Shown here piece by piece: positions 22,724 through 61,545 of a DNA stretch of 64,000 nt (its first letter is position 1; the number at the start of each line of letters is the position of its first letter). A program made the translations under genes and the position numbers. Under the pieces are notes generated by a model that worked only from the letters and a program-made list of their open reading frames with translations, had not been told where the DNA came from and searched no databases. Origin of the DNA: Candidatus Omnitrophota bacterium (GTDB lineage: Bacteria; Omnitrophota; Omnitrophia; Omnitrophales; Aquincolibacteriaceae); contig JAKLIQ010000002.1 of the NCBI GenBank assembly GCA_022709525.1, positions 128,984-192,983 on the forward strand. The letters are read 5' to 3'.

Positions 22724-22842
22724 GAATCTTTTTTGATGCCAACCTCCGTCCCCGGTTTATCCTTTTTCCTTCCGATTTCATTTGATATCTGCTATCTTAC
22801 CCACCATCCTGGCTTTTGTTTTCATATCATTAATGGCTGCCA

Positions 22843-22889
22843 GGATGACCCCAATTTCAACTTCATTAAAATTGAAAGGTATTGGGACC
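22843..22889 (+). promoter_or_regulatory. Copy C of a conserved ~48-nt element ending exactly at the fabL-like ATG
   Basis: Read as GGATGACCCCAATTTCAACTTCATTAAAATTGAAAGGTATTGGGACC, followed directly by ATG. See findings for the three-copy comparison. Confidence 0.6.
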
Positions 22890-23648
22890 ATGACGAATCC
22901 GCTGAAAGGCAAAGTCGCTCTCATTACAGGGGCTTCCCGGGGCATCGGACGAGCCATCGCCCACCGCTTGGCCGAAGACGGTGTTCATATTGCGGTCAAT
23001 TATCTTCAGAATGAAGCGGCCGCGAAAAAGACCGTTGAAGAGCTCCAGGCCAAGGGCGTCAAAGCCGAGGCCTTCCAGGCGAATGTCGGTGATCTCGATA
23101 CTCACAATCCCCTGCTTGAAAATGTCCTCAAAACCTTCGGAACGCTGGATATCCTGATCCACAACGCGGCGCTCGGCGCTTTCAAGCCTGTTCATCGCCT
23201 TAAGATGAACCAGTGGGATCTTTCCATGGATATCAACGCTAAAGCGTTCCTGGCGCTTACTCAAAAAGCGCTTCCGATCATGGAAGCGAAAAAGGAAGGC
23301 ATCATCATCGCTCTCTCAAGTCTGGGCGCGCACCATTTTATCCCCAACTACGGTGCTATCGGGATCTCCAAAGCCGCGATCGAAACCACGGTCCGCTATC
23401 TCGGCGTGGAATTAATGCCGAAGGGCATCAGGGTGAACGCGGTTTCAGGCGGGCTCGTCGATACGGATGCGTTGAAATCATTCCCGTTTTTTGACGCTTT
23501 TAAGGAAGAGGTTTTAAAGCGGACTCCCGCCGGAAGGATCGGAAAACCCGAGGATATGGCCCGCGTGGTCGCGTTCCTTTGCTCCCCGGAATCGTCCTGG
23601 ATCGTCGGCCAAACCCTCATCGCCGACGGCGGACTTTCCCTCATCTAA
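22890..23648 (+). CDS. fabL: FabL/FabI-type enoyl-ACP reductase (SDR with Y-x6-K)
   Basis: The nucleotide-binding motif GASRGIGRA is present. IPNYGAIGISKAAIETTVRYLG resembles FabI [22 protein letters not shown]. The start was chosen at the ATG that has the conserved upstream element. Confidence 0.75.
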   Translation: MTNPLKGKVALITGASRGIGRAIAHRLAEDGVHIAVNYLQNEAAAKKTVEELQAKGVKAEAFQANVGDLDTHNPLLENVLKTFGTLDILIHNAALGAFKPVHRLKMNQWDLSMDINAKAFLALTQKALPIMEAKKEGIIIALSSLGAHHFIPNYGAIGISKAAIETTVRYLGVELMPKGIRVNAVSGGLVDTDALKSFPFFDAFKEEVLKRTPAGRIGKPEDMARVVAFLCSPESSWIVGQTLIADGGLSLI

Positions 23649-29757: not shown

Positions 29758-29921
29758 GGAACACCTCCTACGATACTGCTTGCCGTCCACATTCAGGTGT
29801 AAACCAAACGAAAACGCCCAACTTCCGACATCTCTAACGACGGCATTATCCTATCCTGACTTTTGTTTTTTTTCAACAGAAGGTAGTCAAGACGGTCATC
29901 AGCCGTTCCATGCTTGACCTT

Positions 29922-30134
29922 TTATCCCTTCTTTGCCTCTTTGCCCTTTAAGGCATCGATAAACATCAAAACAAGCTTTCCCACCAGCCAGATCAGCAAG
30001 AGACCAAGCGCAATGACCACAAGGACTCTCAAGGCAAGACCCAATAGAAGCAGGAACGGAAAGAGCAGTATGCCCAACCCGGCAAGCGCAAGCGCCGCAA
30101 CAATGACAAGCAATCCCACAAAAAATTCCTTCAT
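29922..30134 (-). CDS. Small hydrophobic membrane protein (hypothetical, 70 aa)
   Basis: An SD (AAAGGAG) lies upstream. The product contains two TM helices. Confidence 0.45.
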   Translation of the reverse strand: MKEFFVGLLVIVAALALAGLGILLFPFLLLLGLALRVLVVIALGLLLIWLVGKLVLMFIDALKGKEAKKG

Positions 30135-30254: not shown

Positions 30255-30330
30255 GGTGGGCGTAGCTCAATTTGGTTAGAGCACAAGATTGTGGATCTTG
30301 GGGTTGCGGGTTCAATTCCCGTCGCCCACC
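30255..30330 (+). tRNA. tRNA-His (anticodon GTG) with encoded G-1
   Basis: Cloverleaf read by eye as GGTGGGCGTAGCTCAATTTGGTTAGAGCACAAGATTGTGGATCTTGGGGTTGCGGGTTCAATTCCCGTCGCCCACC. Confidence 0.85.
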
Positions 30331-40900: not shown

Positions 40901-41436
40901 TCCCTGAAAAGCTCTTCCGCGGCGATGATCGCGATCTTGGCCTGAAGGAGGTCTTGGCAGGTTTCGATGATGATGCCGTCCACGCCGCCGGCCATGAGGC
41001 CCCTGCATTGTTCTTTGTAGGCGTTTTTCAGCTCATCGAAACCGATGTGGCCAAGTGAGGGAAGTTTTGTTCCGGGACCGACGGAGCCCAGCACGAAACG
41101 GGGGTGATCGGGCGTGGCATATTTTTGCGCAGCTTCCCGGGCGAGCTTGGCAGCCGCTTCATTGATCTCAAGCACGCGATCTTCCAACCCGTATTCGGCA
41201 AGAACGATCCGGTTCGCCCCGAAAGTATCGGTTTCGACAGCGTCGCATCCGACCGCGAGAAAACTTTCGTGGACGCTCCTGACGGCATCGGGCTTGGTAA
41301 TGACCAGATATTCATTGCAGCCGTCCTTACCTCCGAAATCCTGGGGCGTAAGGTTAAGCTTTTGGAGATTGGTGCCGAGCGCCCCGTCAAGAACAAGGAC
41401 CTTCTCATGGAGTCGTTTTAAAAATGGGTGTGCCAT
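37981..41436 (-). CDS. metH: Cobalamin-dependent methionine synthase MetH (Hcy-binding, pterin-binding, B12-binding and activation domains)
   Basis: The B12-binding motif DVHDIGKN is present. Start set at the ATG at 41436 (MAHPFLKRL...); the ORF track's TTG at 41454 lies inside the conserved upstream element. Confidence 0.9.
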   Translation of the reverse strand: MAHPFLKRLHEKVLVLDGALGTNLQKLNLTPQDFGGKDGCNEYLVITKPDAVRSVHESFLAVGCDAVETDTFGANRIVLAEYGLEDRVLEINEAAAKLAREAAQKYATPDHPRFVLGSVGPGTKLPSLGHIGFDELKNAYKEQCRGLMAGGVDGIIIETCQDLLQAKIAIIAAEELFRETGKKLPLIAQVTFESSGTMLLGTDVTSVIATLEMFPVNVIGINCATGPSEMSELVRFFCENSSKNISVLPNAGLPENIGGVAHYKLPPEEFASHIERFVREFGVSIVGGCCGTTPEHLKAVVEKIGSCAPKQRTPKHEPACASLYGIAAYSQKPPPLLVGEQTNANGSKKFKQILEREDYDAMTGVAREAVKEGAHLVDLCVAYVGRDEKKDMIEAVSRFNQHVTVPVMIDSTEPAVIEEALKRIAGKPIINSINLEDGGERLRKICPMAKRYGAGLVVLTIDEKGMAKTRDEKLRIAKRIHQIVTQQYGIRSEDLFFDLLTFTVGSGSEEFRNAAPETIEAIRRLKRDLPGVHTILGVSNISFGLAPRARQILNSVFLDECVKAGLDAAIVHAKKIVPLFKIEPEDLEAARRLLHNKWVDGKDPLQEFIAHFEKKQGIPQGQGGGTVQGAIEEVLKRHIIEGSAEGLEAHLDEALQKYKPLEIINRFLLDGMKQVGEFFGAGKMQLPFVLQSAEVMKKAVAYLERFMEKKEGQERGRIVLATVKGDVHDIGKNLVDIILTNNGYKVFNIGIKQPVDAIVKAALENRADAIGLSGLLVKSTLIMKEDLEEMARRGVKLPVICGGAALTERYVEGDLAKAYQGPVHYGRDAFSGLKIMEGIKKEIGPKTASPVLEEIPTPRNPRRSSSEKPSSGTAKRSSGPLFHVHRDNPIPKVPFYGYRIIKNIRLQDLFGWINKTALFRAQWQFKQGERTPREFELFLQENVEPIFEQFKAKTIREKLLEPRVIYGFFHCYSENDELVILDGSGTNELTRFKFPRQTREPYQCIADFFRPKGGEPDVVAFQAVTMGRRASETEQKLFRANKYTEYLYLHGFSVEATEALAEYTHLMIRRDMGISHQDKKTKEEIFRQKYQGSRYSFGYPACPHLEDQKKLFEVLPAQKIGITLSETFQMVPEQSTSAIIAHHPQAKYFGL

Positions 41437-41484
41437 AGTCCCAATACCTTTCAATTTTTACGAAGTAGAAATTGGGGCGATCCC
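41437..41484 (-). promoter_or_regulatory. Copy B of the conserved ~48-nt element ending exactly at the metH ATG
   Basis: The minus strand reads GGGATCGCCCCAATTTCTACTTCGTAAAAATTGAAAGGTATTGGGACT, followed directly by ATG. Confidence 0.6.
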
Positions 41485-41673
41485 AACCACCCTCTATGTA
41501 AAGAAATTCAGGTTGGGATAGAAAAAATATTCTATCACGGGAAATGAAAAACAGGAAAGAAGGAAGAATTCCCGTTTTCGGAACGGGAAAATCAAGCGCC
41601 CTGATGAATCTGTTATTTGCTAAATGGATCATCAGGACTGCATTGATTTCCCGATTCTTTTCTCTATGGAAAA

Positions 41674-58323: not shown

Positions 58324-58399
58324 GGGCCGGTAGTTCAGTTGGTAGAACGCTACAATGGCATTGTAGAGGTCAGGGGTTCAACTCCCCTCCGGTCCACCA
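58324..58399 (+). tRNA. tRNA-Ala (anticodon GGC), G3:U70 pair, CCA encoded
   Basis: Read as GGGCCGGTAGTTCAGTTGGTAGAACGCTACAATGGCATTGTAGAGGTCAGGGGTTCAACTCCCCTCCGGTCCACCA. Confidence 0.85.
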
Positions 58400-58408
58400 T
58401 TTTTATTA

Positions 58409-58494
58409 GCGAGAGTGGCGGAACTGGCAGACGCACTGGACTCAAAATCCAGCGGTGCTCAAACACCATGAGGGTTCGACTCCCTCCTCTCGCA
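58409..58494 (+). tRNA. tRNA-Leu (anticodon CAA), type II with long variable arm
   Basis: Read as GCGAGAGTGGCGGAACTGGCAGACGCACTGGACTCAAAATCCAGCGGTGCTCAAACACCATGAGGGTTCGACTCCCTCCTCTCGCA. Confidence 0.85.
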
Positions 58495-60763: not shown

Positions 60764-61297
60764 TTAAACGCGAGCACGCTCCTGCTGGATCCACTGGTCG
60801 ATCTCGGACTTGGTAAAGACCCAGTGGCCGCTTTCAAAACGGGCCGGGATCTTTTTTGCATTGGCCCATTCTTCGACGACGCGCGCTTCAACCTCCAGGT
60901 ACTGCGCCACATCCTTAAGCGTCAGGAACACGTCGGGCCCCTCGGAAGCGCTTACGCCTTGCATGGTCACAAGCCCTTGAAGCATGGCGCCATCCCCCAC
61001 GCTCAAACGCGGCGTCGTAAGATTCCCTTTAAGAGTCGCGGTCCCTAGGATCGACAGACTGCGCGATGCCACAACATCCCCGGAGACTTTGCCTGCGATC
61101 ACAATGCTATCGCCGTGGATATTCGCCGTAACCTTGGCGTTCTCCCCGATCGTAAGATTGCCGCGCGTGTCGAGCTTGCCTTCGAAGCTTCCGTTAATGC
61201 GCAAATTGACGGGATCCTTGAACGAAATGGTCCCTTGCATGCTTGCGTCAACGTCGAGAATCTTTTCCTGGATATCTTCCTTTTTCTTATTGGCCAT
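60764..61297 (-). CDS. Bactofilin-domain protein fused to a C-terminal excisionase/MerR-type HTH
   Basis: Beta-helical bactofilin repeats (IxGxVxGD-like) are followed by LTLKDVAQYLEVEARVVEEWANAKKIPA. The start was set at the ATG that has the SD AAAGGAGA 8 nt upstream. Confidence 0.6.
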   Translation of the reverse strand: MANKKKEDIQEKILDVDASMQGTISFKDPVNLRINGSFEGKLDTRGNLTIGENAKVTANIHGDSIVIAGKVSGDVVASRSLSILGTATLKGNLTTPRLSVGDGAMLQGLVTMQGVSASEGPDVFLTLKDVAQYLEVEARVVEEWANAKKIPARFESGHWVFTKSEIDQWIQQERARV

Positions 61298-61334
61298 GGT
61301 CGCTCTCCTTTGGAGGCATTGTGGGATAAAAAAC

Positions 61335-61384
61335 TTAGTCCCAATTCCTATCAATTTCAGAGAATCTGAAATTGGGGCAATCCT
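61335..61384 (-). promoter_or_regulatory. Copy A of the conserved ~48-nt element in the 5' leader of the bactofilin-HTH gene
   Basis: The minus strand reads AAGGATTGCCCCAATTTCAGATTCTCTGAAATTGATAGGAATTGGGACTAAG. Confidence 0.6.
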
Positions 61385-61426
61385 TGTCAACCATTCGAGA
61401 AAAAAATACCAGACAAGGATGATTCA

Positions 61427-61455
61427 TTATCTTCATTTTATCGGACCTTGTCAAT
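61427..61455 (-). promoter_or_regulatory. Sigma70-type promoter: TTGACA, 17-nt spacer, GATAAT, upstream of element copy A
   Basis: The minus strand reads TTGACAaggtccgataaaatgaaGATAAT. Confidence 0.45.
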
Positions 61456-61545
61456 GAATGGCGCGAGACTCGGGACTTGTTCCCCGGGGCCCGTTGGATG
61501 CCCGCTTTTCTCGAGTCCCCAGCCCCGAGTAATAAGTTCCATTTT

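Follow-up and report, generated by a model that had tools for sequence, protein, structure and literature searches.

The leader of a bactofilin-HTH gene was analyzed within a 64,000-nucleotide (nt) stretch of a Candidatus Omnitrophota contig (JAKLIQ010000002.1, positions 128,984 to 192,983 of the forward strand). This whole stretch is called the window below, and positions are counted from its first letter. The gene (60764..61297, minus strand) encodes a 177-amino acid (aa) fusion of a bactofilin and an HTH_17 domain (Pfam PF04519, 4e-23, and PF12728, 2e-12), and it is followed by a gene for a second small HTH_17 protein, also recognized with Pfam. Its leader carries copy A of an element of approximately 92 nt with two hairpins (61334..61425, minus strand), to which the covariance model R1 was matched with 89.2 bits (E 1.3e-20). 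Based on all comparisons, we proposed, with a probability of roughly 0.6, that this element is a lineage-specific, modular interspersed repeat of the BOX/BIME/Correia kind, which was inserted in the bactofilin-HTH leader and has been repeatedly co-opted as a leader.

The minus-strand sequence of the promoter and leader region reads ...cattcaTTGACAaggtccgataaaatgaaGATAATgaatcATCCTTGTCtggtatttttttctcgaatggttGACAAGGATtgCCCCAATTTCAGATTCTCTGAAATTGATAGGAATTGGGACTAAGttttttatcccacaatgcctccAAAGGAGAgcgaccATGgcc. A consensus scan found the -35 hexamer TTGACA at 61449..61454 and the -10 hexamer GATAAT at 61426..61431, separated by 17 nt and matching 11 of the 12 consensus positions. The sequence-only reading had described the same promoter, one nucleotide off (61455..61427 instead of 61454..61426). 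The sequence features named in that reading were all found, three of its coordinates being shifted by 1 nt. The -35 hexamer was kept in orthologues, and the extended motif TTGACAAGG around it (61446..61454) was kept in about 25 close and several distant orthologues free of the element; at the position of the window's -10 box the orthologues have GATAATAAT. Since the -35/-10 pair is conserved before approximately 25 orthologous genes, it was considered more than a chance consensus match and is, judged by this conservation, a genuine promoter of the sigma70 type.

Transcription was predicted to start at about 61419-61420, some 7 nt past the -10 box. Counting from ~61419, the leader is ~122 nt long, close to the ~120 nt given earlier. 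Transcription had also been thought to begin about 40 nt before the element; the start from this promoter was retained, whereas the 92-nt element was found to begin at the predicted start itself. The functional ATG lies at 61297..61295 and is preceded by the Shine-Dalgarno (SD) sequence AAAGGAGA at 61311..61304. This SD belongs to the proximal leader (TTTTTTATCCCACAAT..., 61298..61333, minus strand), an ancestral segment common to orthologues with and without the element. The core of copy A ends in ...ATTGGGACTAAG at 61334, and an AAG at 61336 sits 39 nt upstream of the functional ATG in the same frame. Hence the earlier observations that the element ends here without ATG, and that the real start with its SD follows 39 nt further on in frame, were confirmed. 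It was also observed that the SD falls within a small predicted hairpin, (T)CTCC-AAA-GGAG(A), at ~61303-61315 (minus strand). This CTCC/GGAG hairpin was kept in filled and empty orthologous leaders, and it may serve to damp translation or to sense temperature.

Filled and empty sites at orthologous loci

A metagenome scan provided 80 orthologous bactofilin-HTH loci, which were searched with R1. The element was present in four of them (L125, L127, L129 and L140), always at the same position. About 25 close orthologues had an empty site, with the promoter, the proximal leader, the SD and the ATG all kept. These empty orthologues read cATTGACAAkgcc...GATAATAATgagctgg up to the site and TTTTTTTACCCCACAAT..TCTCCAAAGGAGAGCGACCATG beyond it, and the filled L129 reads ...AATAATGAGCT, then the element (ATCC...GGGACT), then AGTTTTTTTACCCC.... 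At locus L064, from another species, the orthologous block of mnmA, bactofilin-HTH, HTH_17 and acpS genes (77-87% protein identity) was found without the element.

Because the empty-site orthologues keep the promoter, leader, SD and ATG, these parts are taken to predate the element, and the gene to have never depended on it. Copy A is, as far as these alignments tell, an insertion into an older leader that was sufficient by itself, and it lies at the predicted start of transcription. The proposal that an ATG at the end of copy A had been mutated to AAG did not hold. An ATG stands at this place in just 26 of 130 family members and in none of the three filled orthologues whose tails were read (L125, L129 and L140), and the SD and ATG of the gene itself are older than the element according to the empty sites. 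On a neighbor-joining gene tree the filled sites were scattered, each beside empty relatives, which suggests repeated gain or loss, or exchange of alleles, more than a single inherited insertion.

Structure and copies of the element

The window holds three full copies of the element, located before the bactofilin-HTH gene (copy A), metH (copy B) and an SDR gene (copy C), and one partial copy. The full copies scored 86-91 bits with R1, and their reverse strands just 13-23 bits. The alignment of the copies extended the conserved unit to ~92 nt (61425..61334 in copy A) from the ~50 nt recognized earlier. The unit consists of two modules. M1 is the P1 hairpin of 8-11 base pairs (bp) with a conserved T-rich loop, and M2 is a stem P2 enclosing a stem P3, with a bulge of 9-10 nt that carries an SD-like GAWAGG. 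In copy A, M1 occupies 61380..61420 (minus strand), the P1 arms being ATCCTTGTC (61420..61412) and GACAAGGAT (61388..61380) around a T-rich loop of 23 nt. M2 occupies 61340..61377 (minus strand) and is formed by P2 CCCAAT/ATTGGG around P3 TTCAGA-TTC-TCTGAA, with the 3' bulge ATTGATAGGA containing GAWAGG. A 9-bp P1 lies directly 5' of the core in all three copies; its arms differ (ATCCCAACC/GGTTGGGAT in copy B and CATCCTGGC/GCCAGGATG in copy C) and the complementarity is kept.

Copy B (41434..41524, minus strand; 90.9 bits) appears to be the whole leader of metH, with the start codon (41436..41434) as its end. An SD-like GAAAGG is found 10 nt upstream of this codon, an extended -10 box TGaTAGAAT (hexamer 41534..41529) stands directly before the foot of P1, and the MetH domains confirmed a full-length metH downstream. 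Copy C (22801..22892, plus strand; 86.0 bits) likewise appears to make up the whole leader of the SDR/enoyl-ACP-reductase gene and ends with its start codon (22890..22892). Copies B and C end in ...GGGACTATG and ...GGGACCATG, respectively, in place of the ...ATTGGGACTAAG of copy A, so the module does occur in two contexts, at start codons and inside a leader, as the sequence-only reading had put it. The partial copy (29848..29922, plus strand; 20.8 bits, E 0.004) comprises an M1-type hairpin with another, dissimilar short hairpin after it and lies antisense between two minus-strand genes. A shared upstream peptide, SLKLxGIGT, was ruled out as the basis of the similarity; as copy B has an in-frame TAA in the frame that runs into the ATG, the copies resemble each other at the nucleotide level.

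Two further hairpins follow the uvrC stop codon at ~41560-41650 (minus strand), directly upstream of the copy B promoter. The first is CCTGATGA...TCATCAGG; the second, TTCCCGTT...AACGGGAA, has a T-rich tail. Both probably act as terminators, and they explain odd low-score microRNA matches in a permissive Rfam scan.

The structure was tested on 100 non-redundant copies, with 10 + 1 pairs in P1, 6 in P2 and 6 in P3. Standard pairs occupied 90.4% of the cells, as against 21-47% when the 3' partners were slid by 1-3 columns. Changes on both sides of a pair were found in 354 cells (141 +/- 13 in shuffles). Compensatory changes were recorded for 10 of the 11 P1 pairs, the one-pair extension included, and for 4 of the 6 P3 pairs. 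The invariance of P2 is a product of the search pattern, which fixed this stem; variant P2 arms, CATGATT/AATCATG, occur elsewhere. In the bulge (ATTGAWAGGW) and in the T-rich P1 loop it is the sequence itself that is conserved.

P1 and P2 are joined by a 3-nt linker, which is complementary both to the trinucleotide in front of P1 and to an identical one after GGGAC. Examples in the order flank, linker, flank are CCG-CGG-CCG, CCA-TGG-CCA and CGG-CCG-CGG, together with a CTA-TTG-CTA class that has a central T.T mismatch. The two flanking trinucleotides were identical in 68 of 100 copies. A plain target-site duplication of 2-3 bp was not accepted as the explanation, since it would not make the internal linker covary with the flanks; the linker and flank bases thus belong to the structure or the recognition of the element.

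An exact-pattern scan, in which each species was represented by one genome, yielded at least 117 stretches. Titled records among the matches listed were all Candidatus Omnitrophota metagenome-assembled genomes (MAGs), and the first 80 loci came from at least 18 MAGs, many with numerous copies. R1, which was built from 100 non-redundant copies, gave 169 matches in the 677 kb of loci that were fetched, about 50 more than the literal pattern, which shows that diverged copies are common. The 130 instances with flanks comprised multiple P1 subfamilies, some of them genome-specific, and included tandem arrays with a period of ~85 nt. Nested copies, M1-only copies and fragments also occur in the family. 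In co-directional gene contexts 42 copies were sense and 18 antisense, and divergent contexts outnumbered convergent ones by 22 to 11. About one third of the copies were not oriented toward a downstream gene, being antisense or at 3' ends. The family is preferentially kept in sense orientation in 5' regions. At five loci (L031, L039, L072, L112 and L114) the element stands tail-to-tail with a converging gene, where GGGACTA, which is TAGTCCC on the opposite strand, supplies the TAG stop codon of that gene.

At Rfam gathering thresholds the element had no match, and the window gave just three tRNA genes (30256-30330, 58324-58396 and 58409-58494, plus strand). Permissive Rfam scans of copies A and B (E up to 10) returned chance-level matches only, the best being DUF2815 RNA with 18 bits against a cut-off of 41 bits. 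In the literature consulted, which included the main paper on Omnitrophota genomics, the element was not described. The repeat family is considered new.

Other repeats and modules were found around the copies. At 12 loci (L011, L014, L019, L027, L033, L037, L057, L059, L069, L073, L103 and L104) the element sits within a larger, non-coding composite repeat of ~450 nt, itself multi-copy, where it is flanked by other conserved GC-rich hairpins such as GCCATGCCTCGGTGGGGCATGGC, and in L073 a further M1/M2-like unit is nested inside it. A supposed 'MPRLNPS' gene behind many copies was rejected as a transposase, as it is not an open reading frame (ORF) and forms part of this larger composite. An M2-type module, CCCCAATCTCAGCTTCGCTTCGATTGATTGGAATTGGGAC, can be stacked directly 5' of M2, replacing M1, and a second further M2-type module has the arms CATGATT/AATCATG. 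The two were seen at L017, L025, L044, L052, L053, L101 and L106, and also at L027 and L073. Orthologous genes can have different upstream modules before the same M2.

A class of copies adjoins start codons. An ATG was found exactly 4 nt past ...ATTGG in 26 of 130 copies, compared with 1.6% by chance; the tail is TATG or CATG in 25 of them and AATG in one more, and TAAG, TAGC and TATC tails are common across the family. The bulge reads GAAAGG in 17 of 24 start-abutting copies and in 7 of 106 others (Fisher about 1e-10), the majority state GATAGG being a weaker SD. The resulting spacing, AAAGG-N10-ATG, fits genuine SDs of the window (AAAGG-N9-ATG at the bactofilin gene and at a 70-aa gene near 30130). 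A -10-like box, often TGn-extended, precedes the P1 arm by 2-14 nt, mostly 4-10 nt, in 13 of 18 abutting copies and in 15 of 75 others. Since the -10 box lies just upstream and the element ends at the start codon, in this class (~20% of copies, including B and C) the element is, by these predicted signals, the whole 5' untranslated region (UTR) between the transcription start and the start codon.

The genes downstream are unrelated. They encode MetH, SDR, PtsI, a flavin reductase, L28, RecX, Mfd, PlsC-type and lipid A acyltransferases, an ECF sigma factor and a glycosyltransferase, which disfavors a riboswitch or a specific regulon. An S-adenosylmethionine/S-adenosylhomocysteine or cobalamin riboswitch, which metH had brought to mind, was rejected on the same ground and for want of an Rfam match. 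Copies retained between species were 70-91% identical, when synonymous sites were at ~50%. For the SDR copy the window and locus L004 agreed at 89% of positions, the third codon positions at 50% and the 100 nt upstream at 35%.

Preferred reading and rival explanations

On the strength of these alignments and scans, we concluded that the element is a structured, modular, multi-copy and lineage-restricted repeat with insertion polymorphism, that its family moves, or is at any rate gained and lost, over evolutionary time, and that a subset of its copies was shaped by selection into complete leaders. A possible course of events in the mRNA follows from the position of the modules. In copy A, P1 would stand at the extreme 5' end of the transcript, from the predicted start at ~61419-61420. 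Stem-loops at the 5' terminus, for example in the ompA leader, protect mRNA from 5'-end-dependent decay, and P1 of copy A would be expected to shield its mRNA in the same manner. M2 would add another hairpin ahead of the SD that the gene itself uses. The leader features found in other copies go unused in copy A, and the gene keeps its older SD and ATG 39 nt downstream. An effect of copy A on mRNA stability or translation efficiency is likely, and, as ~95% of the orthologous leaders do without the element, it is probably modulatory and dispensable. In leader-type copies such as B and C, P1 would likewise form at the 5' end of the mRNA, the bulge has been sharpened to GAAAGG at the spacing of genuine SDs of this genome, and the last bases run into the start codon.

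Several points weighed against this reading. The transcription start, the folding of the RNA in vivo, any effect on mRNA stability or on translation, and the way in which the element spreads were all predictions. The gene tree was short and without support values, and the insertion polymorphism could stem from recombination between alleles and not from transposition. The high identity of copies across species fits purifying selection on a functional RNA equally with recent spread. Most of M2 was fixed in the search pattern, and the census therefore over-represents intact copies with an SD. Mismatches of the C.A type exceeded G.U pairs in P1 and P3 on the sense strand, counts that were dominated by a few expanded subfamilies; at one P3 pair (columns 81/91) 41 of 100 copies were unpaired, apparently mostly as C.A. 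Such mismatches would be G.T or G.U wobbles on the opposite strand, and the excess does not appear to favor selection on a sense-strand RNA. Finally, no transposase or other mobilizing gene was found with crude probes: tblastn with two HUH sequences gave nothing in ~0.9 Mb around the copies, and the ORFs of the same ~0.9 Mb contained no multi-copy family, both being weak tests limited to these loci. At L031 a RAYT-like layout was considered for an ORF between inverted copies, which by eye resembled a YdbL-like secreted protein.

Some of these points lend themselves to another view, namely that the element is a purely DNA-level selfish repeat whose hairpins, as single-stranded DNA, are recognized by an HUH enzyme of the REP/RAYT or IS200/IS605 type with its gene at another place in the genome. 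RNA structure and leader position would then be by-products of target preference and gene-strand bias. The insertion polymorphism, with its clean empty sites and its scatter over the gene tree, the genome-specific subfamilies and the tandem and nested copies are all consistent with it, as are the C.A mismatches that become G.T wobbles on the other strand. So is the linker complementary to both flanking trinucleotides, which recalls the pairing of guide and cleavage site in IS608. However, the sharpening to GAAAGG, the abutment to start codons and the placed -10 boxes point to selection at the level of RNA and translation in at least one fifth of the copies, divergent (5') contexts prevail over convergent ones, and neither an HUH gene nor a multi-copy ORF was met in the ~0.9 Mb searched. 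A purely selfish repeat was judged unlikely.

Mobility and leader function may also be combined. The element might be a guide-directed, non-autonomous single-stranded DNA transposon whose 3-nt linker pairs, as in IS608, with the left flank and with the right end of the element. It would land preferentially at YTAG/TA sites near transcription starts and would have been domesticated across a clade of Omnitrophota as a plug-in 5' UTR cassette. This scenario is speculative and was regarded as rather improbable. If true, a single cassette would bring a stabilizing hairpin, a displayed SD, the spacing and a start codon, and would have rewired translation initiation for dozens of housekeeping genes.

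It is more doubtful still that the element is a non-mobile cis-regulatory RNA family, a conserved leader that governs the translation of many diverse genes and is bound by a global RNA-binding factor (for example CsrA-, S1- or Hfq-like) or acts as a thermosensor. The strong covariation, the invariant unpaired bases in bulge and loop, and the motifs with GGA that are found at the 3' arm of P1 and within the bulge would suit such an RNA, as would conservation between species far beyond that of synonymous sites and the alignment with predicted transcription start and start codon. Yet ~95% of the orthologous bactofilin-HTH leaders lack the element and its presence is scattered. Furthermore, approximately one third of the copies, the partial copy of the window included, lie antisense or at 3' ends, tandem and nested copies occur, the downstream genes are functionally incoherent, and the majority bulge GATAGG is the weaker SD.

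The last alternative came from the sequence-only reading, in which direct repeats of TTGACAAGG and an inverted CCTTGTC could be operators for the two encoded HTH_17 proteins, which would then regulate their own genes. The direct repeat is present, at 61454..61446 and 61390..61382, one nucleotide from where it had been placed, and the inverted CCTTGTC is present at 61418..61412 (minus strand). TTGACAAGG has three matches in the window, where 0.43 would be expected, and this number was not attained in any shuffle. The downstream TTGACAAGG is the 3' arm of P1 and the upstream one is the ancestral -35 region. As the -35 TTGACAAGG is present in orthologues free of the element, the direct repeat is a chance coincidence of two independent features; the idea that the -35 TTGACAAGG is a remnant of a decayed upstream copy was ruled out, because empty-site orthologues keep it. 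Thus, although the genes do encode HTH_17 domains and the repeats are real and exceed the chance expectation, the operator model is hardly tenable: the inverted repeat is a P1 stem that covaries across copies, so that pairing and not a protein recognition sequence is kept, the same stem precedes dozens of genes that have nothing in common, in 18 MAGs or more, 76 of the 80 orthologous loci lack it even with the regulator gene in place, and the -35 TTGACAAGG exists without the element. In practical terms, these repeats are not worth pursuing as operators of the HTH proteins. It was observed that most of the orthologous promoters (loci L118-L142) carry an 11-bp palindrome, CATTGACAATG, over the -35 box, and that the window has an imperfect palindrome, CATTGACAAGG, over its -35 box (61446-61456, minus strand). 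This palindrome is a better candidate for an HTH_17 operator than the repeats.

Omnitrophota have not been cultured, and next to nothing is known of the signals that govern their gene expression. If the preferred reading of a co-opted interspersed repeat is true, one undescribed repeat family provides the complete leaders of a good number of mutually unrelated housekeeping genes within a single clade. It would help to annotate promoters, start codons and 5' UTRs of Omnitrophota MAGs and would explain puzzling conserved non-coding blocks. Filled and empty orthologous leaders would then constitute a natural experiment on the effect of a mobile, structured RNA module on expression.

Comparison with known systems

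Non-coding copies at multiple loci, compensatory structure and presence/absence polymorphism place the element with the interspersed repeats, and it was compared with four such systems.

The BOX elements of Streptococcus pneumoniae (boxA-boxB(n)-boxC) are similar in being non-coding modular mosaics of variable stacked modules, and in having many intergenic copies, often near gene starts. They can also fold as RNA and affect neighboring expression, as the element may do. A comparable mosaic was found here, with M1+M2 units, M2'-M2 stacks, M1-only copies, tandem arrays of ~85 nt and nested copies. The two share no sequence similarity and come from different phyla. Unlike BOX, the Omnitrophota element lines up with the predicted transcription start, and ~20% of its copies provide the SD and start codon. 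A three-way complementarity of linker and flanks is not known from BOX elements.

Like the element, the REP/BIME sequences of Enterobacteria and Pseudomonas, which have RAYT transposases, are short, imperfect palindromes in which compensatory changes occur. They number in the hundreds outside genes, form mosaics and tandem arrays, and fall into species-specific subfamilies. However, REPs lie mostly 3' of genes or between co-transcribed ones, often as inverted pairs, whereas the element is biased to the 5' side and the sense strand (42 sense versus 18 antisense copies, 22 divergent versus 11 convergent contexts). It is a fixed pair of two different hairpins without a GTAG-type 5' tetranucleotide, and no RAYT gene was found with crude probes in ~0.9 Mb around the copies.

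The Correia elements of Neisseria (CREE/NEMIS) are likewise miniature (~100-150 bp) and inserted near genes. They are co-transcribed with these genes and alter promoters or leaders and mRNA processing, as the element may do. They also show presence/absence polymorphism between strains, and TA-type flanks are frequent. Correia elements differ in having 25-nt terminal inverted repeats and promoter elements of their own, while the promoter of the Omnitrophota element lies outside it. Its termini share few bases in most subfamilies, a terminal resemblance being limited to the CCCAAC subfamily, and its flanks covary with the internal linker in place of a simple TA duplication.

The miniature elements derived from IS200/IS605 (PATEs) are strand-specific, with two subterminal hairpins on one strand and clean empty sites, and a possible guide-to-flank complementarity is a further likeness. 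A TnpA or TnpB relative was not detected in the ~0.9 Mb around the Omnitrophota copies, and the association with translation starts is absent from PATEs. Integron attC sites carry R''(RYYYAAC)...R'(GTTRRRY) boxes at the 3' ends of cassettes in one-directional arrays beside an integrase. They were rejected as a model, as AAC/GTT occurs in just one P1 subfamily, with TTGTC/GACAA and others elsewhere, and the neighbors are housekeeping genes of mixed orientation. Overall, the Omnitrophota element differs from BOX, REP/BIME, Correia and IS200/IS605 elements in its alignment to the transcription start and start codon, in the SD displayed by a bulge, and in a linker complementary to both flanks.

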